A stretch of 64,000 bases of DNA from an uncultured Gammaproteobacteria bacterium (GTDB lineage Bacteria; Patescibacteriota; Patescibacteriia; Magasanikbacterales; UBA922), in contig CAYGHM010000002.1 of the NCBI GenBank assembly GCA_964349825.1, positions 620 through 64,619 of the forward strand, written 5' to 3'. Under the pieces are notes generated by a model. That model was not told where the DNA came from, ran no database searches, and saw only the letters and a program-made list of their open reading frames with translations. Each line of letters opens with the position of its first letter. Position 1 is the first letter of the stretch. This document shows, one piece after another, positions 7,302-39,569 of the stretch. The translations under genes were made by a program, and so were the position numbers.

Positions 7302-7339
7302 CCCTTATTATACAAAAATCCGCCATAAAGGCGGATATG

Positions 7340-7423
7340 TGGGCCGGGCATGATTCGAACATGCGAAGGCGCAAGGCCAGCAGATTTACAGTCTGCCCCG
7401 GTTGACCGCTTCGGTACCGACCC
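7340..7423 (-). tRNA. tRNA-Tyr (GTA), type II with long variable arm
   Basis: The reverse complement GGGTCGGTACCGAAGCGGTCAACCGGGGCAGACTGTAAATCTGC...TGTTCGAATCATGCCCGGCCCA has acceptor, anticodon and T stems that pair, and an anticodon loop CUGUAAA. Confidence 0.75.
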
Positions 7424-7502
7424 ATCTAACTCATTTACAATGACAGCTAGTGATTATTAGTTAACAACGGTTAGTTAGCAATCATTAAATGTCCATTAAT
7501 TG

Positions 7503-7594
7503 TGGGCCGGGCATGATTCGAACTGCGAAGCCCGCCAACGTCGGCGGGCAGCAGATTTACAGTCTGCCCCGGTTGACCGCTTCGGTACCGACCC
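7503..7594 (-). tRNA. tRNA-Tyr (GTA), second copy, with an unusually long GC-rich variable arm
   Basis: Same acceptor, D, anticodon and T arms as copy 1. The variable arm is TGCCCGCCGACGTTGGCGGGCTTCGCA and the total length is about 92 nt. Confidence 0.6.
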
Positions 7595-7688
7595 AAGATC
7601 AATATTCAATTTTCAATTTCTAATTTTTAATTGCATTCCACTTAGCACATAAATGGAAATTGAGAATTGAAAATTGGAAATTTCTAAT

Positions 7689-7764
7689 TGGAGCCAACTC
7701 GGGGATTCGAACCCCGGACCGACGGTTTACAAAACCGTTGCTCTACCAGCTGAGCTAAGTTGGC
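7689..7764 (-). tRNA. tRNA-Thr (TGT), CCA encoded
   Basis: Reverse complement GCCAACTTAGCTCAGCTGGTAGAGCAACGGTTTTGTAAACCGTCGGTCCGGGGTTCGAATCCCCGAGTTGGCTCCA; the acceptor stem is perfectly paired and the anticodon loop is UUUGUAA. Confidence 0.85.
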
Positions 7765-21412: not shown

Positions 21413-21518
21413 CTTCGATTCAGATGGCAGATCCAGGCCTATTGCCTCATGTCTCTGAAAGACAATTAAAAAATGATTCGTGGCATAGTACAAAAAAGGA
21501 GGTACTCTCCCGCGAATC

Positions 21519-22139
21519 ATGTCGAAACGCGGTCATCCTGACTCATTGACCCAGTCCAAGCAAGGATACACCATGTACACCAACCCCAGTGAATCTCTCG
21601 CCCTCATCCTCCGTACCATGGGAGGTATCGCCCTCGTGCGCCCTGCGCTACCTGTCGACAATATCGACGTTGCAAAGTACTTGCGCCAGCGTTGGGCAAT
21701 GACGACGCCATCGGTAGAAATCGTCGTGGCGAACGCCTCGGAAAGCGGTATCGAAATCACGATGGCGGGGATTGTCGGCAGGAGCCCACTCACCGCCTCG
21801 GTGGACATTATGCCGCTCCCGCAGTGGCAACCGATCCAGTCAGCAAGCACCATCCTCGCACGATGGCATTCGCGGATCGACGAACTCATCCTTCGGCTAC
21901 ATCCATCTCCCGTACCGACTGATCGGCTCGTCGCCGTCATCGACGACAAGCAAGCGCTTGTCGAGCTGGCTCGACGGGTGATGTTCGAGCTGAATCTGGA
22001 GATGGACTTCTTGCACAAGGCCAGCGATTTCCTCGACCGGCCTGGTGATGGTCTCATCATCGACCGCCATGGCAATATCACGGACATGCCCGTGATTCCC
22101 CGCTGCCTCAAGCACGAGTCGGTCCTTGCCTTGGGCTAG
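21519..22139 (+). CDS. GC-rich hypothetical protein (no recognisable domain)
   Basis: About 60% GC; a GGAGGT SD lies upstream; MYTNPSES is an alternative start. A terminator hairpin CCCCCGGTATGCTTCATCGCTGCCGGGGG plus T-run follows at about 22255-22290. Confidence 0.45.
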   Translation: MSKRGHPDSLTQSKQGYTMYTNPSESLALILRTMGGIALVRPALPVDNIDVAKYLRQRWAMTTPSVEIVVANASESGIEITMAGIVGRSPLTASVDIMPLPQWQPIQSASTILARWHSRIDELILRLHPSPVPTDRLVAVIDDKQALVELARRVMFELNLEMDFLHKASDFLDRPGDGLIIDRHGNITDMPVIPRCLKHESVLALG

Positions 22140-22328
22140 TAGTACTCTGTACTAGCCCGACCACCGCTCCTTCTTGAGAGTAGTTTCCCAACCCAGTGTC
22201 TTTTTTCCTGCCCTACCCTCCCGACGTAATGTCGGGGACCAAGGCGGACGTTCTACCCCCGGTATGCTTCATCGCTGCCGGGGGTTCGTCATTTTTATGC
22301 TTATTTTAGCGTAAATATGGCAAAAGTA

Positions 22329-22357
22329 TTGACAAAACTGCCGAATTATGATACACT
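22329..22357 (+). promoter_or_regulatory. sigma70-type promoter TTGACA-N17-TACACT (extended TG) for GC-rich cassette 3
   Basis: taTTGACAaaactgccgaattaTGaTACACT. Confidence 0.45.
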
Positions 22358-22571
22358 TTGCCGTTCGGTAAACAATGAAATTACCCCTTTGGGAGACCTT
22401 TCTTGTACCCGATGATCTTTGACAAGAGAATAATGTGTGAAAAATGATTTGTGGGATTTTCAGTTTCTTAGGGAGATTGAAAAACCCACAAATCGACGCA
22501 AGGCGCGTCCGAATGTGGTAACCCCTGCTGATCCGTTAAGTCGGATTGGCCATTGCTCAACGGAGCTCATC

Positions 22572-23186
22572 ATGAACGACTTGCAATTCGTCCTCAGTCG
22601 CGGCAACAAAATCTTCTTCGTCCGCCACAGCCTTGCCGCCCCGGCCGCTGAAGGCCAAGAAGATTTCAACCGTCCACTGACCCAGAAAGGCCGAGAGCTC
22701 GCCAAAAAGACCCGCAAGGAAATCGACCTGAGCAAGGTCGTCTACGTCGCCTACAACCCGGCCATTCGGTGCAAGGAAACGGCCGACGTGCTGATGGACG
22801 GCCTCAAGACGTCGCGTCTCTCCATGCCGCTCGCCTATGGCCTCCACCCGGATTCACCGGGACGGGAGGTGATTTTCCCGGTCTTCCTCCAAATCCGGGA
22901 TTCGTCCCTCGCCGACTACGCCAAACATGGCTGTGCGGAAGCCTTCACGCTGCATGCAACCACGATCCTCGGTTACATCAACAGCGTGTTGAACGACCTG
23001 CCCGAGCTGTACGGCGATCTCATGATCGTCACCCACGGCACCATGGCCGCGGCCCTCGCCCTGCACCTGGGCCAGGCGCTGAAATTCAACACCGATGAGG
23101 TGATGAACTTCAAGCCGACGGAGTGCATGGTGATCACGGTCAGCAAGGACGGCATCACCTGCCACGACTCGCAACTCGTAGACTAA
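22572..23186 (+). CDS. GC-rich histidine-phosphatase-superfamily protein (SixA/PGAM-like)
   Basis: IFFVRHSLAAP (RH-type catalytic motif) and THGTMAAAL. The start was taken at MNDLQF with a GGAG SD; the AT-rich 5-prime extension of ORF 22437.. is probably leader. Confidence 0.5.
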   Translation: MNDLQFVLSRGNKIFFVRHSLAAPAAEGQEDFNRPLTQKGRELAKKTRKEIDLSKVVYVAYNPAIRCKETADVLMDGLKTSRLSMPLAYGLHPDSPGREVIFPVFLQIRDSSLADYAKHGCAEAFTLHATTILGYINSVLNDLPELYGDLMIVTHGTMAAALALHLGQALKFNTDEVMNFKPTECMVITVSKDGITCHDSQLVD

Positions 23187-23314
23187 CGACATCATTAGTC
23201 TGGGTAGATACTCGCCTGACTACAATGATGATTGTTCACACAATCCCCCTCTTGTCGAACACCCCTGGTTGCACATGCACCCAGGGGTTTCGCTTTTTTA
23301 GAGACAAAAAAATA

Positions 23315-23361: not shown

Positions 23362-24786
23362 TTATAGAATAGTAACACATCCATTATTCGCATCGACTTC
23401 AACATACATACCGCTCTCCAATAATTTTGTTGCCACTTTGGTGCCGATCACACATGGCTTTTTCATCTCTCTCGCAATAATTGCTGCATGGCAAGTAATA
23501 CCACCTTCATCAGTGACAAACCCAGCAGCACGTTCCATGGCAGGCACCATATCGGGTGTCGTCATAGCAGCAACAATAATATCGCCAGCTTCAACCAACA
23601 AAAGATCTTTTTTATGTTTAATTTTTTTCACCTTTCCTCTCACGAGACCACGATACGCGACAGCCCCCTTAATTTCCTCTATTTCTTCTGCTTTATGGAG
23701 ATATGTTTCACGCCAAATTACTTCATCCTCTTTTCTGTCTGAGAATTGTACATTCCCCGGTTCAAGAGCGAGTAACGCAAACCAGTCATCACGACGAGAT
23801 TTTACATCTAAACCAATTGTTTTCCACTGAGCAAGTTCATCCGCACGCAAGGCAGAAATTTCCTCAAGTGTCACCCCCATTCGTTTTGCAATTTCTTCCA
23901 AAAGAGGTACGATCCGAGCATACGCGCATGCGAGATAATCGGTACGGCATGTACGAAAATAAACTATCTCTTTGGCAATCGTTACCACATGTCGAATGTC
24001 ATCATCAGCATGCAATGTGTTGAGCAACTCTTTCGACCGCTGTAAATGTATATTTACGTCCTCCTTCATTTCATGAAGTACTTTTTCGCAATCATTTTCC
24101 AATACCTGATTTAATCGCACGCGAACATCAGAAACATCCCACGCTGTACCACTTCCACCACGAATATTTGTCCACCCAAATTCCTGAGCATGGTCTTGTA
24201 AAAGCTGATCTAACTTATCAGATGGATTTTCCAACTCGCCTCGCTGAATCTGAGCGCCAATCTCAAGTAATGCATATTTTTCAACCGTCTGCACATTTAC
24301 CTTTTCAGGAAAACTAATAATTGCCAATTCCTCCTCAAGATCAGCTCTGTTTTTCAAAAAATCACGCAAACGATCTTCTATCGGAAATTGCAGGCCGTAT
24401 CCTGGCAATGTAACCGCAAACGTCTGAAACATTGTGAGAAAATTATCCCACATAGCCATGAGTTCACTGTCTTTTTTCGAAGTAAAATCATTTTTTTCTA
24501 TCTCTTTCGCATACGCAACCATCTTTTCACCATAGGTATATATTGTATCAAATACACCAGCAAGAAATCCCCGCTCCTCGGTTTCTTTTTTGAGTAATTT
24601 TTCAATAAGCTCAAAACTTTCCGGTCCGTACCACCATTCACCATTAAAATATCCGCAAGTAATATACGTATTATCAAGATGATACAGTGTCTTATAATGT
24701 TCAGGCGTTGAAAGTCCCCGAACATAAATGTCCGCAATCAAAACAGTGTATGGACGAGTAACAATAAGATTTAATTTGTTGTGCAT
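23362..24786 (-). CDS. PEP-utilising-enzyme swivel-domain protein, paralog 4 (unique N-terminal domain + C-terminal phosphohistidine domain)
   Basis: The C-terminus GDIIVAAMTTPDMVPAMERAAGFVTDEGGITCHAAIIAREMKKPCVIGT is the PEP-utilisers mobile domain with its catalytic His. Confidence 0.75.
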   Translation of the reverse strand: MHNKLNLIVTRPYTVLIADIYVRGLSTPEHYKTLYHLDNTYITCGYFNGEWWYGPESFELIEKLLKKETEERGFLAGVFDTIYTYGEKMVAYAKEIEKNDFTSKKDSELMAMWDNFLTMFQTFAVTLPGYGLQFPIEDRLRDFLKNRADLEEELAIISFPEKVNVQTVEKYALLEIGAQIQRGELENPSDKLDQLLQDHAQEFGWTNIRGGSGTAWDVSDVRVRLNQVLENDCEKVLHEMKEDVNIHLQRSKELLNTLHADDDIRHVVTIAKEIVYFRTCRTDYLACAYARIVPLLEEIAKRMGVTLEEISALRADELAQWKTIGLDVKSRRDDWFALLALEPGNVQFSDRKEDEVIWRETYLHKAEEIEEIKGAVAYRGLVRGKVKKIKHKKDLLLVEAGDIIVAAMTTPDMVPAMERAAGFVTDEGGITCHAAIIAREMKKPCVIGTKVATKLLESGMYVEVDANNGCVTIL

Positions 24787-24788
24787 AA

Positions 24789-26117
24789 TTAATTTTTAGT
24801 AAGAATGGTAATTTTTCCTATATGCGCATCTACCTCGACCAGGTCTCCGTCCTTCAAAACTTTTGTTCCAATCTTTGTCCCAATGATACACGGCTTATTC
24901 ATCTCTCGAGCGACAATTGCTGCATGCGATGTAATACCACCAATATCAGTGACAAATGCCGCAGCGCGACGCATACCCGTCAAAAAATCAGGTGTTGACA
25001 TGGCAGCGACGAGAATATCACCTTGTTCAATCTTCGCGCATTCTTTTGCATGAAGCACTACTTTTACTTTTCCAACTACTTTCCCCGGCTGCGCGCACAT
25101 CCCGGTGATTTCTGTTGGCCGCTCTTCTGTGCTCTTCACTTGTTCCTCTTTTCCTTCAAATAATTCAACAGCGCTATCAGTAATTTCCAAAATAAAATTA
25201 TTGCGTGTATCAAATTTCGGCTTGATGTACATGCGGCCGTGCAATACATTTTTTACCTCCTCAATGCGCATGTGTAATAATTCATCATACTGCACAATAT
25301 CGGCAAAACATATCATGACCATTTCTCGAAATAAATATGTGCCATAACAATTGGCTTCCCATTTTTCCGTACGCAATCGAAGAAGTTGCTCAGCATACCG
25401 GACAAATGGTGAATCAACTGCTTCCATTTCTTTTTGTTCTTCGGGTGCATGATGAAGACTATCACGAAGCATCACATACGCTTCAATAACGGTCCATGGA
25501 TGGCCTTTAAAATATTTCATCCCGAGGTATCCATATTTTTTACAAAACGTTTGCAGATCTTCTGTAAGAGAACTCGATAATTCATGTAATTCTTTTCCTT
25601 CCGTATCAAGCAATTCATCACGATATCTGTTTGCCAACTCCGTCAACAGCACTGATGCGCGTGTCGTATCTGTCACAGCAGAACGCATCGCATGCGGTGG
25701 AATACCTTGTCTCGTCAATTCAGCGCTCAACCCGGACTCCAAAACAAATCGCGCAATAGATCCGGTAGCTCGCATTGCTTCATCGAAATATTCATCAATA
25801 AGTTCGGGATGCTGACGCGCAGTATGGAGTTCTGTTTCAAATCTTTTTAAAAATGTTTTGAAGCGATCAAAAATAGTTTCAATCTCATGAATAAGATTAG
25901 TATATTGTTCATCCGTAAGAAGTTTCGTTCCCATTTCCGTATACTGCGCCAATGACCAATTGATATCCCCATTAATATGATTGTACTGAATATACGGATA
26001 CTGAAATGAAAAACCTAATTTCGTAAAATCGGTATATGTATAAATACCACTCAATACCAAATCCTGGGTCAATAAATCAGACCGATGGTTGACAATAATT
26101 TCCCAATCTCTTTGCAT
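24789..26117 (-). CDS. PEP-utilising-enzyme swivel-domain protein, paralog 3
   Basis: C-terminal GDILVAAMSTPDFLTGMRRAAAFVTDIGGITSHAAIVAREMNKPCIIGT; the N-terminal ~330 aa are unrelated in sequence to the other paralogs. Confidence 0.75.
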   Translation of the reverse strand: MQRDWEIIVNHRSDLLTQDLVLSGIYTYTDFTKLGFSFQYPYIQYNHINGDINWSLAQYTEMGTKLLTDEQYTNLIHEIETIFDRFKTFLKRFETELHTARQHPELIDEYFDEAMRATGSIARFVLESGLSAELTRQGIPPHAMRSAVTDTTRASVLLTELANRYRDELLDTEGKELHELSSSLTEDLQTFCKKYGYLGMKYFKGHPWTVIEAYVMLRDSLHHAPEEQKEMEAVDSPFVRYAEQLLRLRTEKWEANCYGTYLFREMVMICFADIVQYDELLHMRIEEVKNVLHGRMYIKPKFDTRNNFILEITDSAVELFEGKEEQVKSTEERPTEITGMCAQPGKVVGKVKVVLHAKECAKIEQGDILVAAMSTPDFLTGMRRAAAFVTDIGGITSHAAIVAREMNKPCIIGTKIGTKVLKDGDLVEVDAHIGKITILTKN

Positions 26118-26121
26118 ATAT

Positions 26122-27540
26122 CTACGCTTTAGTCAGCACTTTAATAGTCCCTTTACTCGCATCGACTTCTACTATATCCCCATCTTTCAATATAGTCGTC
26201 GCCACTTTGGTGCCTACAATACAAGGCACACCAAGCTCGCGAGAAACAATCGCCGCATGAGAAGTAAGTCCGCCAGTATCCGTGACAACGGCGCTTGCCT
26301 TTTTCATGATAAAAACATATTCAGGTGTTGTCATGGAAGTAACCAATACATCTCCATCATCAAACCCTACCACATTATGCGGATCAAGCACAATTTTTAC
26401 TTTCCCTGTCACCAGACCCTTTCCTTTACAGGCAATAATACCACTAAAATTTTCAGTACTAGCGTCTACTTGCACATCCACATAAAGTTTCCAGCCGTCG
26501 AGTGTTTCTGATGAGCCCAAAAACTGAACGGTGTTTTCACTTCCGTACACACCAAAAGCTTTCTTTCTCTCATTCGGATCAACAGCGACCGTACGACCAT
26601 TTAGTAGTTCAATAATTTCTGCCCCGGAACAATTCAATAACGTGTTCACATCGAACTGTGGCAAACGCTGTGCTGCCTCAACAAGCAAAATATGCTTATA
26701 ATGCAAATAAATCCAGATATCTTTTTTTCGTGTATCCTGCCATACGATTGCGTCGGTAATCGCTTCTGCAATTGCCATAACTGAATCAGGCAATTTATAT
26801 TCTTCCTGTGTTTCAATTTTTTGCTGACGCACGAGAGCCAATCTTTCCTCTACCTCTTTTCGTATATCCAGAGAAAGTGTTTTTTTTCTTTCTGCAAAAA
26901 ATTCTACTGGCAATACTTCTACATTGGCATAACTATTTCGCAACCAAAAATATTTTTGTTGATGTACAGCAATATCATCCGTCTCGACCAAATCGATTTC
27001 TTCTTCCTGATAAAATGATTTTCCTTCAGGGGCAGTCAATATTTCCATGACATGCATCATCTGTTCTTCTGGAACAAACGGAACAAGCGAACGACGCAAT
27101 ACATCACTTGATCCATAGTTTGATAATTCTGGCAGAATGGCATATACCCAAAATGTCTTCAATAATTTTCCAAAACGTAATAACACATCTTGAAAGGCTT
27201 CGAATGATAAAAGGGACAAGTCAGTAGCGCCAATCTCTTGATTAAGCATGGTAAAATCATGATGTGCCACCATCCACTGTGCGCGAACAGACTCTCGTTT
27301 CTCACGTGGAAGCATCATTTCCAGAAACAGTTTTTCTCCATTTCGCTGCAATGCATCAGCTTCATGCATCCACACCATTCGATTCTCTTTAAATAAAGCT
27401 AAAAAATCTGGCCATCCATATCCAGGAAATTCCTCTGGATAGTCAATAAAAAAAACATCAAAACAATCTGCATAATAAATGTAGAATGGCGTAGGCCCCC
27501 ATTTGAAAATTTCTTTATGTGGATCAAGGTATTGTTTCAT
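26122..27540 (-). CDS. PEP-utilising-enzyme swivel-domain protein, paralog 2
   Basis: C-terminal GDVLVTSMTTPEYVFIMKKASAVVTDTGGLTSHAAIVSRELGVPCIVGT. Confidence 0.75.
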   Translation of the reverse strand: MKQYLDPHKEIFKWGPTPFYIYYADCFDVFFIDYPEEFPGYGWPDFLALFKENRMVWMHEADALQRNGEKLFLEMMLPREKRESVRAQWMVAHHDFTMLNQEIGATDLSLLSFEAFQDVLLRFGKLLKTFWVYAILPELSNYGSSDVLRRSLVPFVPEEQMMHVMEILTAPEGKSFYQEEEIDLVETDDIAVHQQKYFWLRNSYANVEVLPVEFFAERKKTLSLDIRKEVEERLALVRQQKIETQEEYKLPDSVMAIAEAITDAIVWQDTRKKDIWIYLHYKHILLVEAAQRLPQFDVNTLLNCSGAEIIELLNGRTVAVDPNERKKAFGVYGSENTVQFLGSSETLDGWKLYVDVQVDASTENFSGIIACKGKGLVTGKVKIVLDPHNVVGFDDGDVLVTSMTTPEYVFIMKKASAVVTDTGGLTSHAAIVSRELGVPCIVGTKVATTILKDGDIVEVDASKGTIKVLTKA

Positions 27541-27543
27541 AAA

Positions 27544-28548
27544 CTAAGTTATTTTTCTAATAATTCCTCTGTTCGCATCAACCTCAATAATATCTCCATC
27601 TTTCAACAATTGCGTTGCAATCTTCGTTCCAATAACGCAAGGAATCTTCATCTCTCTAGAAACGATAGCGGCGTGACAGAGTAATCCACCCTCATCAGTA
27701 ACAAAGGCTCCGGCCAATTTCATTGCTGGTAAAAAATCCGGAGTTGTCATTGGCGAAACCAAAATATCACCCTGAAGTACTTTTGATAAATCTTCCTTGG
27801 TATACACAATTTTTACCTTTCCTATTACAGTGCCTTTATACCCTATCTGTCCGCTAATTTCTTTTGCATCAACAACGTCATCAGATGTCAATTCAAAGGC
27901 TTTTTCTGTTGCAAGTTTTTCTATACTGAGAGGATAAATATTTGCAGCACAATCCTCCACAAATAGATTGCTTACATCTGAAATTCTAGAAAATTCTATA
28001 TATTCTATTAATTGTTTTACCTGTATAACTTTTACCTGTTCTAAGGGTAACCCGCTTGATACAAGAGATCTTCTTATAAAATCATCAGCGAGGCTCCAAA
28101 GATCATCTCCTTCTCTCTGTTCTTTACTCCAGCTACGTATATCATCCGGCCATTCTTCTGTCATTGAAGAAATAAACATGACGTGATTTGAAAAACGAAG
28201 GTCGTTAAATAGTCGACACATTTCCAAAACGTCTTTTGGATATACATCTTTTTTTTCTGAAAGTTTTCTTATGCTTTCGGCGATTCGTGTATAATCTTTT
28301 TTTGTTTGTTCAAATAATACACTATCAGTAAGTAGGCTATCTTTTATCTTATTATTCCAGTAATCAAACGATTCCTTGTTTAACCAAAATTCAACAACTC
28401 CATTTTTTACATACTTCAGGACCGGACTACTCAACACCGGATCAAAAGAATCAACCAAGGCTTCTGGAAAATGATAAAAACCAGAAGATGCTAGTAAAAA
28501 TGTAATATCTCTGGAATATGTTTTTTCAAAAACAATTTTTTTATTCAC
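27544..28548 (-). CDS. PEP-utilising-enzyme swivel-domain protein, paralog 1 (shortest, 334 aa)
   Basis: C-terminal GDILVSPMTTPDFLPAMKLAGAFVTDEGGLLCHAAIVSREMKIPCVIGT. Confidence 0.75.
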   Translation of the reverse strand: MNKKIVFEKTYSRDITFLLASSGFYHFPEALVDSFDPVLSSPVLKYVKNGVVEFWLNKESFDYWNNKIKDSLLTDSVLFEQTKKDYTRIAESIRKLSEKKDVYPKDVLEMCRLFNDLRFSNHVMFISSMTEEWPDDIRSWSKEQREGDDLWSLADDFIRRSLVSSGLPLEQVKVIQVKQLIEYIEFSRISDVSNLFVEDCAANIYPLSIEKLATEKAFELTSDDVVDAKEISGQIGYKGTVIGKVKIVYTKEDLSKVLQGDILVSPMTTPDFLPAMKLAGAFVTDEGGLLCHAAIVSREMKIPCVIGTKIATQLLKDGDIIEVDANRGIIRKIT

Positions 28549-28638
28549 ACTGTTTGAATCTTATTCAATCAAAATTAAATTACACTTCTCCTTCATCGTA
28601 TTTTACAAATAACTTTCAAATATATTTGGATATAAATT

Positions 28639-29583
28639 TTACCCCAAAGTCGTAATTGGTCGACTCTGCACAACATAAATAGTACTGTTCTGCATTGCCC
28701 ATTCAATATCACAAGGGAAACCATAGTGCTTTTCAATGCGCATAATCACATCCGACAATTCAACAATCTGTCGACCGGATAATTTTTGCACTGCCTTTTT
28801 ATTATCTTCAACATCTACCCATTCATTACCGCCCTCTGACTTTCGTACCATCATGCGTTCCTGATCAGCAATATTAATATCGAGAATATTACGTGGTTCT
28901 TTTTCCAATACATAACTATCTGGCGTAATCTGTCCGGACACCACTGCTTCTCCCAATCCCCAACCCGCTTCGATAATCATTTGATTATAATCTTGTGTTA
29001 CCGGGTGAACAGAAAATGCGATACCAGAAATTTCTGACTGAACCATCACTTGCACCACAACCGCCACTGAGACGTGGGTTTCACTAAATCCTTTTTCAAA
29101 TCGGTAAAAAATCGCACGCGGCGTAAACAATGATGCCCAACAACGACGAACATTCGTAAGTAAATTTTCTTCGTTTGTATTTAAATAACTTTCCAACTGT
29201 CCTGCCCACGCAGCCTCTGCTCCATCTTCTGCTGTCGCACTCGATCGAACCGCGACATATTCAGCATTCAATCCGTGAAATGATTCAATAATTGATTTTC
29301 CCAAATCTTCAGGAAAAGCCACATTCAAAATAAGCGCATGGATCTGCTCAGAAGCGTTTTCAATCGTATGAATTTCTTGAACATTTACCTTGCCTAAAAT
29401 CGCATTGATCTCTACATTCAAATCAGTTTCTTCAATAAAACGATCAAAAGCAGGAGCGGTAACAACAAATCCTGGAGGTACTGGAATGCCTGCTCGAGTC
29501 ATTTCTCCGAGAGAAGCACCCTTTCCTCCGGCAATATCAACATGATCTTTGGAAAGCTCAGTAAAAGGAACTACGTATTGCAT
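28639..29583 (-). CDS. stand-alone ATP-grasp nucleotide-binding domain protein of PEP synthase / pyruvate phosphate dikinase N-terminal type
   Basis: MQYVVPFTELSKDHVDIAGGKGASLGEMTRAGIPVPPGFVVT...AVRSSATAEDGAEAAWAGQ...FSVHPVT...IEWAM is the PPDK_N/PpsA N-terminal signature. It is the first gene of the five-gene operon. Confidence 0.8.
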   Translation of the reverse strand: MQYVVPFTELSKDHVDIAGGKGASLGEMTRAGIPVPPGFVVTAPAFDRFIEETDLNVEINAILGKVNVQEIHTIENASEQIHALILNVAFPEDLGKSIIESFHGLNAEYVAVRSSATAEDGAEAAWAGQLESYLNTNEENLLTNVRRCWASLFTPRAIFYRFEKGFSETHVSVAVVVQVMVQSEISGIAFSVHPVTQDYNQMIIEAGWGLGEAVVSGQITPDSYVLEKEPRNILDINIADQERMMVRKSEGGNEWVDVEDNKKAVQKLSGRQIVELSDVIMRIEKHYGFPCDIEWAMQNSTIYVVQSRPITTLG

Positions 29584-29686
29584 ATGAATAAATAGGTATA
29601 ATTATAGATAAATAATAGTAAATTTAGCGAAATTTGTCCAGCTCACGGCTCAAAAATAAAATGACGAGGTTTACCCCGTCATCCTT

Positions 29687-30070
29687 CTATTTCTTCTTCG
29701 TAATATTCGGCTCGGCACTATACTCCGGCAATATATACATTCCCGGCTTCTGTCGGAGTAATGTTTTAATCATATCCTGAGGCATTTTTGCCTGTTCTCC
29801 GGTTATGGCAAGAAGTGGCATATGAAACACATAGCCAAATGTATTTGCCACCGTCACCGCAATACGGGTACTGCTAAATCCTCCCGCCCCCACGACTACC
29901 AGTATACCTCGAATCTCTTCGACCTTCCGACCTAGTTCCGTTAAAAATAAGTCAATACAGGTAAGCACTTCACGGTTCATCACCTGATACATTTTTCTCT
30001 CAATTTTTTGCTCATCAAAAAAAGCCAGGACAATCTGGTCACGCACTGAGGTGTCAATAACTAGATACAT
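29687..30070 (-). CDS. tsaB: short TsaB/YeaZ-like protein (t6A biosynthesis partner of TsaD), N-terminal domain only
   Basis: MYLVIDTSVRDQIVLAFF...VVVGAGGFSSTRIAVTVANTFGYVFHMPLLAI parallels YeaZ MRILAIDTA...GPGSFTGVRIG... Confidence 0.55.
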   Translation of the reverse strand: MYLVIDTSVRDQIVLAFFDEQKIERKMYQVMNREVLTCIDLFLTELGRKVEEIRGILVVVGAGGFSSTRIAVTVANTFGYVFHMPLLAITGEQAKMPQDMIKTLLRQKPGMYILPEYSAEPNITKKK

Positions 30071-30187: not shown

Positions 30188-30790
30188 CTAAACATCAAGT
30201 TTATTCACCACTTTAAAATTCTTCCCCTCAAACATGCTGAATAAAAACTTATCCATCATCTCACGACGGTCACGAAATTCACGTTCTGTCATGAGGGTAT
30301 AACGGATTTCATTGCCGCTTTCTTTTTCATACTCTTCGATCATGCGGGCAATAGTATTTTCTTTGAGGTCGCCAACGATAAGCATGTCACTGGTGGCATC
30401 GTATTCACCTACGAACCTTCCGGCGAGAATGAGAAGCAATACAGAACCGCTCTTATCTTGAAGGGTTCGCAAAAATTGCTGTTCTTCCATAACCTGCGCC
30501 TTCATAATAAGCTGGTGCAATTCCGGATGCATAAGAGACCCAGTATTGAGCTGATAGTATTTTCTCAATGTCGATCCTGCTTTATATTTGTCTGACCGTT
30601 TCTGATCTTCCGCTTCAATAATAATATCAGCATCAAGAAGAAGCTGCAGTTCACGACGAATCGCATTGATCTGGGTATCAATCTGACGCGCCAATTCACG
30701 AACAAAAAAAGTCTTCTCAGGATTGTGGAAGAAGAGCTTCAATAACTTAACCCGGGTTTTTGAACCAAAAAGGTGTTCAAGCATACTAAA
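30188..30790 (-). CDS. winged-helix DNA-binding protein (putative transcriptional regulator)
   Basis: MFSMLEHLFGSKTRVKLLKLFFHNPEKTFFVRELARQIDTQINAIRRELQLL has HTH character. The start was moved to the internal Met because the listed 5-prime extension runs through the MITE copy. Confidence 0.45.
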   Translation of the reverse strand, partial: FSMLEHLFGSKTRVKLLKLFFHNPEKTFFVRELARQIDTQINAIRRELQLLLDADIIIEAEDQKRSDKYKAGSTLRKYYQLNTGSLMHPELHQLIMKAQVMEEQQFLRTLQDKSGSVLLLILAGRFVGEYDATSDMLIVGDLKENTIARMIEEYEKESGNEIRYTLMTEREFRDRREMMDKFLFSMFEGKNFKVVNKLDV

Positions 30791-30909
30791 CATGCGAACT
30801 ACGAAAAATACGAAAGTACGAACAATACAAAGCGAAAATGATTCTGAACTGACAAATTTACAAGTTACCCCCATTTCGTAATTTCGTCCCATTTCGTAAT
30901 TCGCATGTT
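30788..30909. mobile_element. MITE-like repeat copy C (diverged, with internal ACGAA/TTTCGTAA direct subrepeats) in the divergent promoter region
   Basis: aacatgcgaactacgaaa...tttcgtaattcgcatgtt; its right end abuts TTGTCT-N17-TATAAT just upstream of the 30968 gene. Confidence 0.5.
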
Positions 30910-30967
30910 TGTCTATCACGATTACATAGAGTATAATACCGCTAGGCCCAAAAGTCAAAGTATCATT

Positions 30968-33232
30968 ATGAGCCATCTTGAACTACAGGAGTTTTTCGTT
31001 GAAGGGCACGAACAGCGGACATCCCACGTCCTCCTCCATATTACTGAACCGAGCACAGCCGATGAATTGGCCAAAGGCTATTTTTTTGCGTTGATAGAAA
31101 TTAATAGCGCAACTATCGGAAATATAGAGAAATTTCAAAAGATGATTGATGATATTGAAAAGGGATATTATGAAACCGATCACGGTGATGAAAAAGACCC
31201 TTTTGAAGCAACTCTGGAATTTATTAATCGACGTTCAGAGCAATTGCTCGAAGAAAAAATTGAAGTAAACGCCCTTATCGGCGTTATTCGAAACAATACT
31301 CTCGCCTTCGCAGTACATGGAAATCCACATGCCTATCTCTTTTACCGTCAAAAACAAGAGTTTGGCAGTGTAAATATTTTGGAAGGTAATGATGCACAGC
31401 ATACTCGTGAATTATTTCCTTCTGTTCTTCAGGGCAATCTCAATGCAGGTGATTTCCTCTTTGTAGGAACTCCACATGTTATAGAATTCATTGCGCCAGA
31501 CCGATTACAAAAACTCATCACTTCCCGTTCCACCAAACAAAGTTCGGAACATATTCAAAAAGTATTATCAGATACTAATAGCGAATATTCTTTTGGTGGT
31601 ATTATATTCCGTATTCTTCCTCATTCAGAGAAAATACCGCCAACATTCCAACAAAAAGCAAACACCCCACAAGGGTCAGAGGCATCACTGAATAAACTCA
31701 TGCACGCAAAACAACAAACAGCAGAAACACTGTCCCCGCCCGTATTCCGTCAATTACTTCGTCGCATCAAAGAAAAAATGGGGCAAGAAAAACAGACCAA
31801 TACCACCTCCACTCATACCACCAGACACTCGTCTGCCCCTTCCATTGCTAAACAGCATCAATATGACGAATCAACAAAGCATGTGCCAAAACATACTGGA
31901 CCAGAAGAAACAATTTCCAACGCTCTTCTCATTGGTTTCGGTCGTGCAATTGTTATTGGCTTGGTTGGATTTGGCAAAACAATCAAATACATCGTCCTCA
32001 CGCTAGTAAAACTTCTTATCGGACTCTTCATCCTTATTACTAATAAAAACAATAGTCGCAAAGAGGTCGTCCGATCTATGCAAACAAAAGGAAGAAACCT
32101 TCTTGATATCTTTGAAAACCTTCCTGTAATCAGTAAATTCCTATTTGTTCTTACCATATTTGCTGTTATTATTTTTAGTATTAGCCTCAGCACGCTGCAT
32201 ATTCGCAGACAATACGTGGTGAAACAAGAAACATACAAAAATATTATCAGCGCTGTGCAAAATAAAAAAGATGCAGCTGAAGCAAGTATTATTTACGACG
32301 ATAATACAACTGCCCTTACCCTTCTTACCGAGGCTCGCGATCTTCTCAACCAATTACCAGAAAAAGACAAAAAAGCTGATGAACAAAAATCACAATTTGA
32401 ACAAAGCATTCAAGAAAGTTTAAGAAAAGTACAAAAAATGAAAGAGGTATCACCAGAACTCATTACGTCTCTCGGAAGTCCGGGAAAACAAGTGGGTACA
32501 GAAAAATTGGTTCGTATAGATGATACACTCATTGCGTATGGACCAAATGATCCTCTCTTATACCGTGTTAATGTAAATACAAAAGCAATGGAAGAAACAA
32601 ATCACGAAACAATGACCGGACTTCGCATTGCCTCGACACCAAAAGAACAGGATACCATTGTATTTATTCATGCAGACAATCGTATTGCTACCTATCAAAA
32701 AGACTCTGGATTACTTTCACCAAAAACAATTGGCTATCCAGGAACCACTACCAATATTGTGGATGCGTTTATCTACAATGTAAAACTTTATACACTTGAT
32801 CAGAGTACCAATCAAATATACAAGCATAGCAAAACGCAAACTGGTTATGACAAAGGAACAGCATGGTTAAAAACAACAACTGACTTATCACAAGCACAAT
32901 CATTTGCCATTGACGGTGATATGTTTATATTGAACAAGGATGGCAACATCCTTAAATTTACCAGTGGCGAACAGCAGACATTTACCATTTCTGGACTTGA
33001 ACCAGCGCTCGATGAGCCATCACAACTCTGGACGTACAATGAGGTAAAAAATATCTACATTCTGGAACCAAAAAATAAACGTGTTGTTGTGCTTGATAAA
33101 ACAGGAAAGCTCGTTCAGCAATACACCTCTTCTTCTTGGCTTAAACCTACTGACATGGTGATTGATGAAACAGGTAAAACAGCATACATATTAGACGATA
33201 ATAAAATATATTCCTTTGCTTTAGAAAAATAA
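30968..33232 (+). CDS. large hypothetical membrane protein: N-terminal cytoplasmic domain, central TM pair, C-terminal beta-rich extracytoplasmic domain
   Basis: Start MSHLELQEFF; TM helices LLIGFGRAIVIGLVGFG and LFVLTIFAVIIFSISL; no catalytic motif recognised; 755 aa. Confidence 0.45.
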   Translation: MSHLELQEFFVEGHEQRTSHVLLHITEPSTADELAKGYFFALIEINSATIGNIEKFQKMIDDIEKGYYETDHGDEKDPFEATLEFINRRSEQLLEEKIEVNALIGVIRNNTLAFAVHGNPHAYLFYRQKQEFGSVNILEGNDAQHTRELFPSVLQGNLNAGDFLFVGTPHVIEFIAPDRLQKLITSRSTKQSSEHIQKVLSDTNSEYSFGGIIFRILPHSEKIPPTFQQKANTPQGSEASLNKLMHAKQQTAETLSPPVFRQLLRRIKEKMGQEKQTNTTSTHTTRHSSAPSIAKQHQYDESTKHVPKHTGPEETISNALLIGFGRAIVIGLVGFGKTIKYIVLTLVKLLIGLFILITNKNNSRKEVVRSMQTKGRNLLDIFENLPVISKFLFVLTIFAVIIFSISLSTLHIRRQYVVKQETYKNIISAVQNKKDAAEASIIYDDNTTALTLLTEARDLLNQLPEKDKKADEQKSQFEQSIQESLRKVQKMKEVSPELITSLGSPGKQVGTEKLVRIDDTLIAYGPNDPLLYRVNVNTKAMEETNHETMTGLRIASTPKEQDTIVFIHADNRIATYQKDSGLLSPKTIGYPGTTTNIVDAFIYNVKLYTLDQSTNQIYKHSKTQTGYDKGTAWLKTTTDLSQAQSFAIDGDMFILNKDGNILKFTSGEQQTFTISGLEPALDEPSQLWTYNEVKNIYILEPKNKRVVVLDKTGKLVQQYTSSSWLKPTDMVIDETGKTAYILDDNKIYSFALEK

Positions 33233-34556: not shown

Positions 34557-34729
34557 ATTGTAACCCAAAAAAATAAAAAATCTCTGGCACTACCAAAGAC
34601 TAAGTACAATCGACCTAAGAGAAAAATCTCTTAATTTTGCACCTCGGTAGCACTTATCCCCGAAGGGTGGCTACTGTCTTCAGTAATGAGTTGTGAAGAC
34701 ATAATACTATATATGCTGGCCGCTGTCAA
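34557..34729 (-). promoter_or_regulatory. rplJ promoter (TTGACA-N17-TATTAT at 34701-34729, minus strand) plus structured L10-leader-like 5-prime UTR
   Basis: Minus strand: cTTGACAgcggccagcatatatagTATTATg followed by a GC-rich stem region, GAAGACAGTAGCCACCCTTCGGGGATAAGTGCTACCGAGGTGC. Confidence 0.5.
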
Positions 34730-38342: not shown

Positions 38343-38441
38343 TTTGTGTTTTTACCTATTTCACAAAACTATTTTTATTTATCTTGATTTTCCCCCGGTT
38401 TCATGTTTTAATGCTTTAATGTTTTATTGTTTTCATATCAC

Positions 38442-39569
38442 ATGATCATCCTCGCCATCGAATCCTCCTGCGACGATACTTCAGTCGCCTTACTCGACGC
38501 CTCCGACGAGGGTATTATTGTGCTCGAACAAAAAACTGCGAGCCAGATTGATATTCACAAAAAATATGGCGGTGTTGTTCCTGAAGTGGCAGCGCGCAGA
38601 CATGCGGAAGTTATTCTTCCTGTGGTCGAAACTGTCATGACATCTCTTTCTGTGGGATCATACCCTGGTATGATCCACTCTCCCAACAAACCGGATGCCA
38701 TTGCCGTAACCTCTGGTCCCGGTCTCATCACCGGCCTTATGGTTGGTATTGAAGTGGCAAAAACATTGTCATACACATGGAATGTGCCGCTTATCGGCGT
38801 GAATCATATTGAAGGACATATACACTCATCAATTCTAAATGACAAATTTCAAATTTCAAATTTCAAAAAAAATGCCTTTCCTGCGGTGTGTTTGATAGTA
38901 AGTGGCGGACATACGGAATTAATTTTGATGAAAGACTTTGGTGTATACGAAAAAATTGGTGGAACTAGGGATGATGCGGCAGGAGAAGCATTTGATAAAG
39001 TAGCAAAATTACTAGGATTGGAATACCCAGGCGGACCAAAAATTTCCGAATATGGAAAAACAGGAAATCCCCATGCGATTCGCTTTCCCCGCCCCATGGC
39101 GGATAGCGATGATTTTGATTTTAGTTTTTCTGGATTAAAAACAGCCGCACTCTACTGGTTGAGAGATAATTCTCTCCAGGAAATAAACACAAATCCATTT
39201 GGTGCGATTGCTTCGTGGTTTGGAACAAAAAAAGATGGCATTACCAAAAATGATTTTTGTGCATCTATCGAACAAGCCATTGTAGACGTATTGGTAAAGA
39301 AAACCATGAATGCCATTAAAAAATATAAACCAAAATCTCTCATTCTCGGAGGCGGTGTGAGTAATAATACAAAACTCCGAGAAACCTTGGTGTACGCAGC
39401 AGCACCAGAATTAGGAAAAGAACATATTCATATTCCGGAACGCGAATACACGATGGATAATGCAGCAATGATCGGCGCTGCGGCATATTTTAGACTGAAA
39501 AAAGGTGAGCACATTTCTCGGAAAGACATTCAGCCTGATCCAAATTGGAAAGTATACGATAAAAAATAA
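38442..39569 (+). CDS. tsaD: tRNA N6-adenosine threonylcarbamoyltransferase TsaD (Kae1/YgjD family)
   Basis: MIILAIESSCDDTSVALL..., GVNHIEGHI, VSGGHTEL and DDAAGEAFDKVAKLLGL are canonical motifs. Confidence 0.9.
   Translation: MIILAIESSCDDTSVALLDASDEGIIVLEQKTASQIDIHKKYGGVVPEVAARRHAEVILPVVETVMTSLSVGSYPGMIHSPNKPDAIAVTSGPGLITGLMVGIEVAKTLSYTWNVPLIGVNHIEGHIHSSILNDKFQISNFKKNAFPAVCLIVSGGHTELILMKDFGVYEKIGGTRDDAAGEAFDKVAKLLGLEYPGGPKISEYGKTGNPHAIRFPRPMADSDDFDFSFSGLKTAALYWLRDNSLQEINTNPFGAIASWFGTKKDGITKNDFCASIEQAIVDVLVKKTMNAIKKYKPKSLILGGGVSNNTKLRETLVYAAAPELGKEHIHIPEREYTMDNAAMIGAAAYFRLKKGEHISRKDIQPDPNWKVYDKK

Follow-up and report, generated by a model that had tools for sequence, protein, structure and literature searches.

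One ATP-grasp subunit and four swivel acceptors: a likely two-component dikinase operon of the rifampin phosphotransferase type in a CPR bacterium

What chemistry is performed by a locus that encodes one ATP-grasp nucleotide-binding subunit and four proteins ending in a PEP-utilising swivel domain? In CPR bacteria and DPANN archaea the genome is very small and little metabolism can be recognised. The pieces of such a locus are publicly annotated as 'pyruvate, water dikinase' or 'PEP-utilizing enzyme', and the first of these labels can falsely assign a gluconeogenic PEP synthase to CPR and DPANN organisms. A sequence-only reading of the present DNA, a 64 kb window that is the whole stretch analysed, had described five tightly packed minus-strand genes with the domain logic of rifampin phosphotransferase (RPH). 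The five ORFs, G-S1-S2-S3-S4, were recovered with exactly the boundaries assigned there and are separated, in gene order, by 90, 3, 4 and 2 bp. A six-frame scan of the window found one grasp ORF and four swivel ORFs and no more. We consider it likely that the locus is a multi-acceptor, two-component RPH-type dikinase, with one G for four acceptors. The cluster probably supplies four ATP-dependent kinases, each with a different molecule as its substrate.

The first gene, G (nt 28639–29583, minus strand), encodes a stand-alone ATP-grasp subunit of 314 aa, as had been read from its letters. PF01326 PPDK_N matches residues 16–313 at E 2.4e-101, that is, over the whole length of the protein. In PEP synthase and RPH models, the part that aligns with G is the N-terminal ~330 residues. 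The gene for G adjoins that of an acceptor, S1 following on the same strand after a gap of 90 bp. In 30 homologues, K21 and R113 are invariant and T136 is invariant or nearly so. These numbers are close to those of RPH Lys22, Arg117 and Thr136 (PMC4844700), and judged from position the residues may be equivalent. G is proposed to be the loader of the swivel histidines.

The four genes that follow, all on the minus strand, encode the acceptor subunits, each consisting of an N-terminal X domain and a C-terminal swivel. S1 (nt 27544–28548), is a short acceptor of 334 aa with a GTG start; its X domain (aa 1–235) is helical and reduced, and its swivel at aa 236–334 (nt 27547–27843) contains the catalytic His292 in TDEGGLLCH292. 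The 472-aa S2 (nt 26122–27540) carries a RIF-binding-domain-like X domain at aa 1–370, and its swivel at aa 371–472 (nt 26125–26430) holds His428 (TDTGGLTSH428). Similarly, S3 (nt 24789–26117, 442 aa) combines an orphan-like X domain (aa 1–340) with a swivel at aa 341–442 (nt 24792–25097; His398 in TDIGGITSH398), and S4 (nt 23362–24786, 474 aa) an X domain at aa 1–375 with a swivel at aa 376–474 (nt 23365–23661; His433 in TDEGGITCH433). The C-termini of S1–S4 are PF00391 PEP-utilizers domains with E values from 1.8e-26 (S4) to 2.7e-24 (S3). The swivels share 48–66% mutual identity, and the catalytic His of GGxx[CS]HAA is present in all four, which agrees with the similar PEP-utilising ends described earlier. 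The swivel His of T/SxxGGxxxH is invariant in two sets of homologues (n=84 and n=82).

The N-terminal regions had been called completely different, and this part of the sequence-only reading did not survive. Pairwise BLAST among the four regions gave nothing significant. The null result reflects a limit of sensitivity and is not evidence of non-homology, since it was overturned by profiles. For leave-out jackhmmer profiles, the sequences came from other genomes and every window protein was excluded; a small database was searched. The S2-seeded profile found S4 at 4e-40 and S3 at 8e-9; the S4-seeded profile found S2 at 2e-100 and S3 at 6e-18; and the S1-seeded profile found S4 at 3e-9 and S2 at 1e-7, with a central insert of about 145 aa missing from S1. 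By hhalign, the S2 family matched the S4 N-terminus over 274 columns (probability 98.4%, E 7.9e-15). Against single sequences the same family had no match with S1 and reached E 0.013 with S3, too weak alone; these weak comparisons are superseded by the leave-out profiles. Because the profiles and hhalign link them, the X domains of S1–S4 are placed in one superfamily and, judged by these alignments, are very divergent copies of one fast-evolving domain. The tie of S3 to the superfamily comes from iterated profiles in a small database, and BLAST of its X domain against 182 X domains taken from other genomes found no relatives. A word-index search with the S4 N-terminus returned 2 close relatives only.

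The superfamily resembles the RIF-binding domain of RPH. The S2-family profile aligned by sequence to RPH residues 698–866, reaching ~70 residues into the RIF-binding domain, and the partial alignment of S1 with that domain extends about 88 residues beyond the swivel. The alignment of S4 with NCBIfam models of RPH type begins ~45 aa before its swivel; in a PDB sequence search, the match of S2 was confined to the swivel. All X domains appear RIF-binding-domain-like, the match being partial for S1 and drawn from sequence profiles for S3 and S4, and the acceptors show a plan in which an RPH-type substrate domain comes first and the swivel forms the C-terminus. Basic residues recur ~90–100 residues before the swivel: R145-E146 in S1, with R145 invariant in 82 sequences, and R271/K272 in S2, with K272 invariant in 84. 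Comparable positions in S3 and S4 read R-T-E-K and R-T-C-R. In the RIF-binding domain of RPH, Arg666, Glu667 and Lys670 are essential for the second phosphotransfer (PMC4844700), and the conserved Arg/Lys of the X domains may be likened by position to R666 and K670.

Alternatively, the locus could be a conventional PEP synthase or PPDK in pieces, in which G, one S protein and a separately encoded TIM-barrel subunit form the enzyme and the other S genes are redundant or decaying. Source databases name the relatives 'pyruvate, water dikinase'. G matches true PEP synthase best (NF005057 at 1.2e-103), and the best matches of the swivels are the PEP synthase structures 8a8e and 9dae (E 1e-24 to 6e-45). 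Both G and the swivels obtain better scores with true PEP synthase than with RPH; the catalytic modules are therefore PpsA-like, and the locus may be linked to PEP/pyruvate chemistry. However, the PF02896 TIM barrel was found in no window ORF of at least 250 aa and in none of 49 fused relatives, in agreement with the earlier statements that no such barrel is encoded here or nearby and that the locus is not a PEP synthase or PPDK. Nothing occupies the place that the barrel has in PpsA; here the swivel is preceded by a domain of RPH type. TIGR01418 and NF005057 matched the grasp or swivel portions only, with scores below their cut-offs. The four S genes are all intact and keep the catalytic His, and S1, S2 and S4 are not decaying duplicates because their own X types recur in other genomes. 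A conventional split PpsA is therefore rejected for want of a TIM barrel in the window or the fused relatives, and we regard it as highly improbable.

As a multi-acceptor RPH-type dikinase, the locus would work by a mechanism that we infer from homology with RPH, PpsAB and HpeHI. G would bind ATP and phosphorylate the conserved swivel His of an acceptor, yielding AMP, Pi and His~P. The swivel would then swing back to its own N-terminal X domain, where the phosphoryl group would pass to a hydroxyl, or a similar group, of the bound ligand. One G would serve S1–S4, translated from one tightly packed operon. Four different phosphorylated products are most likely, because the X domains are ancient, strongly diverged paralogues, and the acceptors of S1–S4 would be four different small molecules.

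Sharing of one grasp is suggested by the relatives. Among Patescibacteria and DPANN archaea, ATP-grasp relatives with 58–68% identity, stand-alone or fused, are encoded by at least 567 species-level genomes, with 1–7 acceptor modules per system and with a single-protein form, grasp-(X-swivel)n, in which n is up to 5. Of 82 related loci, 33 have a free G, and 31, 12, 3, 2 and 1 have a G fused to 1, 2, 3, 4 and 5 X-swivel modules, respectively. For instance, one 2350-aa protein contains 1 PPDK_N and 5 PEP-utilizers domains. Since relatives fuse the grasp to 1–5 X-swivel modules, one grasp would work with many acceptors by Rosetta-stone reasoning, which supports the earlier proposal of one ATP-grasp partner for several acceptor modules. 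The acceptors are diverse: among 182 of their domains, drawn from 80 genomes, there are 86 sequence clusters. Many CPR/DPANN genomes give 3–8 kb to this system. A literature search of limited coverage found nothing relevant describing this dikinase family in CPR/DPANN, and the arrangement, common in ultra-small bacteria and archaea, appears not to have been described from them.

The earlier note had also presented the division of RPH logic between two polypeptides as a feature of this locus. The division stands; the form is already known from PpsAB, CreHI and HpeHI, characterised two-component RPH homologues in which both subunits are required and the swivel His is used (PMC12167813). What is new here is the scale, namely the spread in Patescibacteria/DPANN and the several acceptors per grasp, and not the split form. 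Like the present locus, these systems have a separate ATP-grasp subunit (HpeI/CreI/PpsB, ~40 kDa) encoded by an adjacent gene, and, like S1–S4, their acceptors carry an RPH-type substrate domain and then a swivel with the catalytic His, with no TIM barrel (PMC12167813). As found here, RPH was the sole PDB structure aligned with HpeH over most of its length (PMC12167813). In contrast, they have one ~70 kDa acceptor per grasp, whereas four of 334–474 aa are present here; PpsA, CreH and HpeH are ~45% identical to each other, whereas the X domains of S1–S4 have no detectable pairwise similarity. Their substrates are phenolic, their hosts are free-living degraders and their genes adjoin carboxylase or catabolic genes, whereas the present genes belong to a CPR bacterium and their recurrent neighbour is a phosphatase of the His_Phos_1 family. 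Nor do the proteins group with the phenolic kinases: the PRK08296.1-x models gave 62–96 bits against cut-offs of 578–730, matching at positions ~495–608 (the swivel) only.

RPH itself (PDB 5FBS/5HV1; PMC4844700) is a single ~865-aa polypeptide whose one acceptor domain is specific for rifamycins, whereas here the grasp is a separate protein, with four acceptor proteins beside it. The locus proteins are 17–24% identical to it. They are not RPH proper: against model NF041857 (cut-off 999), G scored 285.7 bits and S1–S4 56–66 bits, and against NF000283 (cut-off 1700), G scored 200 and S1–S4 44–52. PpsA and PPDK are the closest sequence relatives of the grasp and swivel, and the PpsA motif GGxT[SC]H is kept in S2–S4. 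Their order is grasp-swivel-barrel; here there is no barrel, the substrate domain precedes the swivel and the parts are spread over five proteins.

A further group, the prodigiosin ligases PigC/RedH/HapC, has an RPH-like three-module plan, with NCBIfam similarity to the present proteins in grasp and swivel. It suggests that phosphorylation might be purely activating, ahead of a condensation, elimination or substitution of the PigC/RedH kind, so that the four modules would be ligase- or synthase-like, belonging to one or several pathways, and not kinases with stable phosphorylated products. The PigC/RedH models match G at E 1e-76 and the swivels at 1e-13 to 1e-20, and PigC/HapC-type enzymes are reported to have the grasp, substrate-domain and swivel plan in common with RPH (PMC13534948). 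However, these scores are far under the curated cut-offs (255 bits vs 1300). The known enzymes are single polypeptides of ~880 aa in pigment biosynthetic clusters, and no such cluster is present here. No conserved biosynthetic partner genes stand beside the clusters, and the phosphatase as recurrent neighbour fits a stable phospho-species better than transient activation. We consider such activation enzymes unlikely.

In the window this neighbour is a gene of the histidine-phosphatase superfamily (nt 22572..23186, plus strand; PF00300 E 3.8e-07) that is convergent with S4, the two stop codons being 176 bp apart. The ORF is open from GTG 22437, and ATG 22572 is its likely start; public gene calls place two antisense ORFs at this position instead. 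Its catalytic residues R18, H19, R66 and H155 are invariant across 37 cluster neighbours. His_Phos_1 genes are enriched inside or next to the clusters (23/191 vs 4/765 genes; odds ratio 26, p 2e-13), and LMWPc (5), HAD (3) and HD (3) phosphatases also occur among 146 neighbours. Neighbours other than phosphatases are heterogeneous, with 135 Pfam families among the 146, and the gene context points to no substrate.

By analogy, the convergent His_Phos_1 is most likely a phosphatase opposing the dikinase. Its target could be the phosphohistidine of the swivel, which it would hydrolyse in the way that SixA acts on NPr and Ndk; alternatively, it could dephosphorylate a product. The likeness to SixA acting on PTS-Ntr NPr and Ndk lies in a His_Phos_1-family phosphatase paired with a phosphohistidine transfer chain (PMC6282199, PMC7948535, PMC12934123). 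Unlike SixA, the 37 cluster phosphatases gave generic CobC/SixA/dPGM-like sub-threshold NCBIfam matches only: 16/37 matched the SixA model weakly, none at its cut-off, and a CobC-type resemblance was more frequent (21/37).

A kinase beside a phosphatase could also mean a regulatory phosphorelay and not metabolism. The X-swivel proteins would then be phosphocarriers or sensors that pass His~P to proteins or control them, with His_Phos_1 and LMW-PTP-type enzymes as the matching protein phosphatases. Against this, the fold of the X domain is that of the small-molecule-binding domain of RPH, and the characterised proteins with an RPH-type substrate domain all phosphorylate small molecules (PMC4844700, PMC12167813). 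An HPr/NPr-like or response-regulator partner was not seen in the window. A protein-directed relay is judged improbable.

Reading the locus as an RPH-type dikinase removes a false PEP synthase call and adds a large and diverse set of uncharacterised small-molecule kinases. For organisms with the lifestyle of this bacterium, the most plausible substrate classes are scavenged metabolites, phosphorylated for salvage or trapping, and toxic compounds that are inactivated. Should host metabolites or antibiotics prove to be the substrates, the system would bear on how episymbionts feed on their hosts or survive beside them, and on the reservoir that RPH-like resistance enzymes have in the environment. 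More tentatively, and with less than even confidence, it is possible that a lineage-wide phosphorylation platform of ultra-small episymbionts, both CPR and DPANN, has spread by horizontal transfer. A conserved ATP-grasp would charge a changeable set of 1–7 hypervariable acceptors, free or in grasp-(X-swivel)n megaproteins, each phosphorylating a different host or environmental molecule for salvage or for toxin or antibiotic inactivation, and a dedicated His_Phos_1 would reset the phosphohistidines. The system is also a natural setting in which to ask whether many swivel carriers can be served in trans by a single ATP-grasp, and the grasp-(X-swivel)5 fusions and the conserved phosphatase partner are direct experimental handles.

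A known anti-phage defence system was rejected because PADLOC gave no family match for G and S1–S4 at E≤0.01. The GC-rich island adjoining the operon matched no RNA family in an Rfam scan, and the 206-aa GC-rich ORF at nt 21519–22139 had no relatives among 86 loci and no Pfam match. On the other side, a consensus scan placed a promoter-like site, TGGACA-17-TATTAT (nt 29612..29640, minus strand), 29 bp upstream of the start codon of G; such sites are not more numerous in the region than shuffled expectation, which lends this one little weight. Just upstream of it, a terminator-like hairpin (nt 29658–29685) lies 3′ of the gene preceding G.

The five consecutive minus-strand genes proposed by the sequence-only reading were all recovered by ORF listing and translation. 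They comprise G, a stand-alone ATP-grasp subunit of 314 aa (28639–29583), and four acceptor subunits, S1 (27544–28548, 334 aa), S2 (26122–27540, 472 aa), S3 (24789–26117, 442 aa) and S4 (23362–24786, 474 aa), separated in this order by gaps of 90, 3, 4 and 2 bp. In Pfam searches, PPDK_N (PF01326) spans G residues 16–313 (E 2.4e-101) and the PEP-utilizers mobile domain (PF00391), the swivel, occupies the last ~70–100 residues of S1–S4 (E 1.7e-25 to 2.7e-24), which bears out both domain assignments; the four swivels, described earlier as highly similar, share 48–66% pairwise identity. Each carries the phospho-carrier histidine in the motif GGxx[CS]HAA (S1 H292, S2 H428, S3 H398 and S4 H433). K21 and R113 of G are invariant among homologues, and judged by these residues G is predicted to be a competent ATP-grasp. 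A six-frame scan of the 64 kb with HMMs made from these domains yielded one grasp ORF and four swivel ORFs, and none further. Just upstream of G, sequences resembling a terminator hairpin and a promoter hint that the five genes may be transcribed as one unit.

In Pfam scans no window ORF of at least 250 aa, and none of the fused relatives tested, had a PEP-utilizers_C TIM barrel, in agreement with the earlier claim that no such domain is encoded here. A conventional split PEP synthase would need a TIM-barrel partner encoded far away, and we regard this explanation as very improbable. What the scans did pick up among the other window ORFs of at least 250 aa were ordinary housekeeping genes (aminoacyl-tRNA synthetases, DnaE, MreB, ClpB, TIM, ribosomal protein L10, glycosyltransferases and DUF4012). 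The window corresponds to a contig from a metagenome (ENA ERZ27247837), and its nearest relatives bear Patescibacteria/Paceibacterota labels.

The variable segments preceding the swivels (X domains) had been called completely different, and pairwise BLAST among S1–S4 gave nothing better than E 0.03. At the superfamily level the description proved wrong, as leave-out profiles and hhalign connect all four. The profiles drew on 182 X domains from 80 related genomes and 150 S2-type cluster representatives; window-derived sequences were removed, iterated profiles were seeded for each window X domain, and the four window domains were then scored. With the S2 seed, S4 scored E 4e-40 and S3 8e-9; with the S4 seed, S2 scored 2e-100 and S3 6e-18; with the S1 seed, S4 scored 3e-9 and S2 1e-7, the match to S4 being made of two co-linear blocks that leave out S4 residues 146–288. 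Alignment of an 84-sequence S2-family alignment with the S4 N-terminus by hhalign gave a probability of 98.4% and E 7.9e-15 over 274 columns.

Similarity also extends to rifampin phosphotransferase (RPH). RPH residues 698–866 align with the S2-family profile (E 1e-28), reaching ~70 residues into the RIF-binding domain, and the alignment of NCBIfam RPH-type models to S2 and S4 begins ~45 residues upstream of the swivel. For its second phosphotransfer RPH depends on Arg666 and Glu667 in its RIF-binding domain, together with Lys670 (PMC4844700). Basic residues occur about as far ahead of the swivel in the S proteins: Arg145, which is invariant in the S1 family and followed by Glu in S1 itself, Arg271 and Lys272 in the S2 family, of which Lys272 is invariant, and the motifs R-T-E-K in S3 and R-T-C-R in S4. 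By position alone, these basic motifs would be the counterpart of RPH Arg666/Glu667/Lys670.

The X domains are hyperdiverse, with the 182 segments falling into 86 clusters at E<1e-20; among the conserved parts, the grasp shows 58–68% identity and the swivels a median of 52–57%. The S1 X domain has a 50%-identical counterpart inside a fused archaeal-labelled protein, and for that of S2 three other genomes contain counterparts of ~34% identity. In the 182-segment sample the S4 X domain has distant relatives only, and the S3 X domain has none among the segments from other genomes. As judged from sequence, the window S paralogues are old, not recent duplicates. The S2-type X domain is represented by 417 cluster representatives among 1.8 billion proteins, and the S1 type forms a large family of proteins of ~335–345 aa.

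A word-index search for the stand-alone grasp returned 7922 proteins at E<=1e-30, the best 120 of which are, a handful of closer copies excepted, nearly all ~314 aa long and 62–70% identical. Scanning one genome per GTDB species confirmed at least 567 grasp loci, the best 80 being 58–68% identical, in many Patescibacteria lineages and in MAGs labelled DPANN archaea. One locus lies in a complete Iainarchaeum genome, flanked by genes for the NOG1 GTPase and a RIO-type kinase; since such neighbours are expected for an archaeon, the context is archaeal. ATP-grasp copies from CPR bacteria share 60–68% identity with those of DPANN archaea. This comparison suggests that the system has been transferred across domains, between these two groups of ultra-small organisms.

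Architectures were counted in 82 non-redundant loci by our own ORF calling and HMMs, with taxonomy taken from MAG labels. The grasp is free-standing in 33 and fused to one X-swivel module in 31, as an RPH-like single chain of 670–850 aa; fusions to two, three, four and five modules occur in 12, 3, 2 and 1 of the 82 loci, and Pfam finds one PPDK_N and five PEP-utilizers domains in a protein of 2350 aa. Swivel modules number from 0 to 7 per fetched locus, with at least four in thirteen loci, both counts being lower bounds because each locus was truncated at 10 kb or by the end of its contig. Relatives in which one grasp is fused to several X-swivel modules are Rosetta-stone evidence for a single grasp working with more than one acceptor module, which lends support to the earlier idea of one partner serving four modules. 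On the strength of these fusions, G and the acceptor modules are predicted to be functionally linked.

Five loci (L007, L010, L015, L021 and L071) contain giant single ORFs of 1905–2388 aa, in which one ATP-grasp is followed by 3–5 X-swivel modules; L021 has one X-swivel module ahead of the grasp. Their MAG labels are mostly Nanoarchaeota, Woesearchaeota or archaeon. Elsewhere, an X-swivel protein (L070:9857–11908) ends in a region resembling Peptidase_M29 (E 6.6e-09).

The split RPH-like form is already known and has characterised precedents. HpeHI, CreHI and the phenylphosphate synthase PpsAB are two-component dikinases made of an ATP-grasp subunit and a subunit of RPH-type substrate-binding domain with swivel; they need both subunits and the swivel histidine, and HpeH by itself can move phosphate from one substrate to another (PMC12167813). 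The window system matches this architecture. It falls outside the phenolic-kinase clade, since NCBIfam PRK08296 models match the swivel only and far below cut-offs. Identity with RPH, PigC/RedH or PEP synthase was rejected, as curated NCBIfam cut-offs are not reached, and a PADLOC search found nothing for G or S1–S4.

The RPH-type reading of the operon gains support from the fusions, the lack of a TIM barrel, and the composition of the four acceptor proteins, each of which is assigned an RPH-type domain and a swivel histidine. By analogy with RPH, PpsAB and HpeHI, G would turn ATP into AMP and Pi while phosphorylating the swivel histidine of an S protein, and the swivel would then go back to its own X domain and phosphorylate the bound acceptor. 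S1–S4 would share G, and their X domains would bind different acceptors. We consider this general mechanism, loading of the swivel by G followed by transfer to an X-domain acceptor, rather likely. Phosphorylation could instead be a transient activation of the PigC kind, which seems unlikely to us.

The loading and transfer mechanism may be accompanied by a phosphatase. A His_Phos_1 gene (22572–23186, plus strand; PF00300, E 3.8e-07) lies directly downstream of S4 in convergent orientation, and an iterated search found comparable genes inside or adjoining the clusters of many loci. Of 37 cluster-associated proteins, 30 are confirmed by Pfam, and all 37 share the catalytic residues Arg, His, Arg and His. 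Counting strong matches only, His_Phos_1 accounts for 23 of 191 non-core genes in or flanking clusters versus 4 of 765 farther off in the same loci (odds ratio 26, Fisher p 2e-13), and occurs in 21 of the 82 loci. The commonest families among 146 other immediate neighbours are also phosphatases (LMWPc 5, HAD 3, HD 3), the rest being heterogeneous. NCBIfam gives CobC-like and SixA-like matches, all under cut-off, and assigns no subtype. SixA, a His_Phos_1 member, dephosphorylates phosphohistidines of NPr and Ndk, whether these are catalytic or carrier residues (PMC7948535, PMC6282199, PMC12934123). With SixA as precedent, the phosphatase may reset the system; dephosphorylation of the product is equally possible. 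That the cluster is a phosphorelay directed at proteins is, in our estimate, also unlikely. A CPR/DPANN family with one loader and many hypervariable acceptors, grasp-(X-swivel)n megaproteins and a conserved His_Phos_1 partner appears to be undescribed in the searchable literature.

In one relative a single protein (L040:12427–14397) combines a His_Phos_1 domain with an N-formylglutamate amidohydrolase (FGase) domain (E 2.4e-30). The window phosphatase gene (GC 0.595, GC3 0.82) lies in a GC-rich island at 21500–23250, with 57–60% GC in 250-bp bins versus 41% for the window and no Rfam family match. The island holds two plus-strand genes with an AT-rich spacer between them, the other being an orphan 206-aa ORF (21519–22139, GC3 0.72) with no Pfam match and no relatives in 86 loci. 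In public gene calls the phosphatase gene is covered by two short ORFs on the opposite strand. Cluster His_Phos_1 genes elsewhere are also GC-richer than their loci (L004 0.62 vs 0.44, L051 0.55 vs 0.43, L005 0.54 vs 0.46). Transfer of the phosphatase gene and a constraint on codon usage are both possible origins of the island.

Directly upstream of the dikinase operon, a 262-aa HTH protein (30188–30976, minus) gives a PADLOC match (E 6.5e-22) to PDC-M05A, a candidate defence family, and the divergent gene for a 775-aa protein (30905–33232, plus), with no significant family match, overlaps its ORF by 72 bp; together the two may form a candidate defence pair. A 127-aa ORF (29687–30070, minus) matches TsaB/YeaZ (TIGR03725, E 1.8e-10, below cut-off) over no more than the N-terminal ~90 residues of the family, and could be a TsaB that is truncated or minimal; the gene for a full-length TsaD lies at 38427–39569. 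A tRNA cluster (7339–7764, minus) contains Thr(TGT), Tyr(GTA) and Tyr(GTA), the second tRNA-Tyr copy (7502–7595) being 94 nt long and scoring 38 bits in Rfam versus 52 bits for the 85-nt copy. An Rfam L10_leader (34565–34701, minus; 50.3 bits, above the gathering score) precedes the ribosomal protein L10 gene (34032–34568) and is an ordinary feature.
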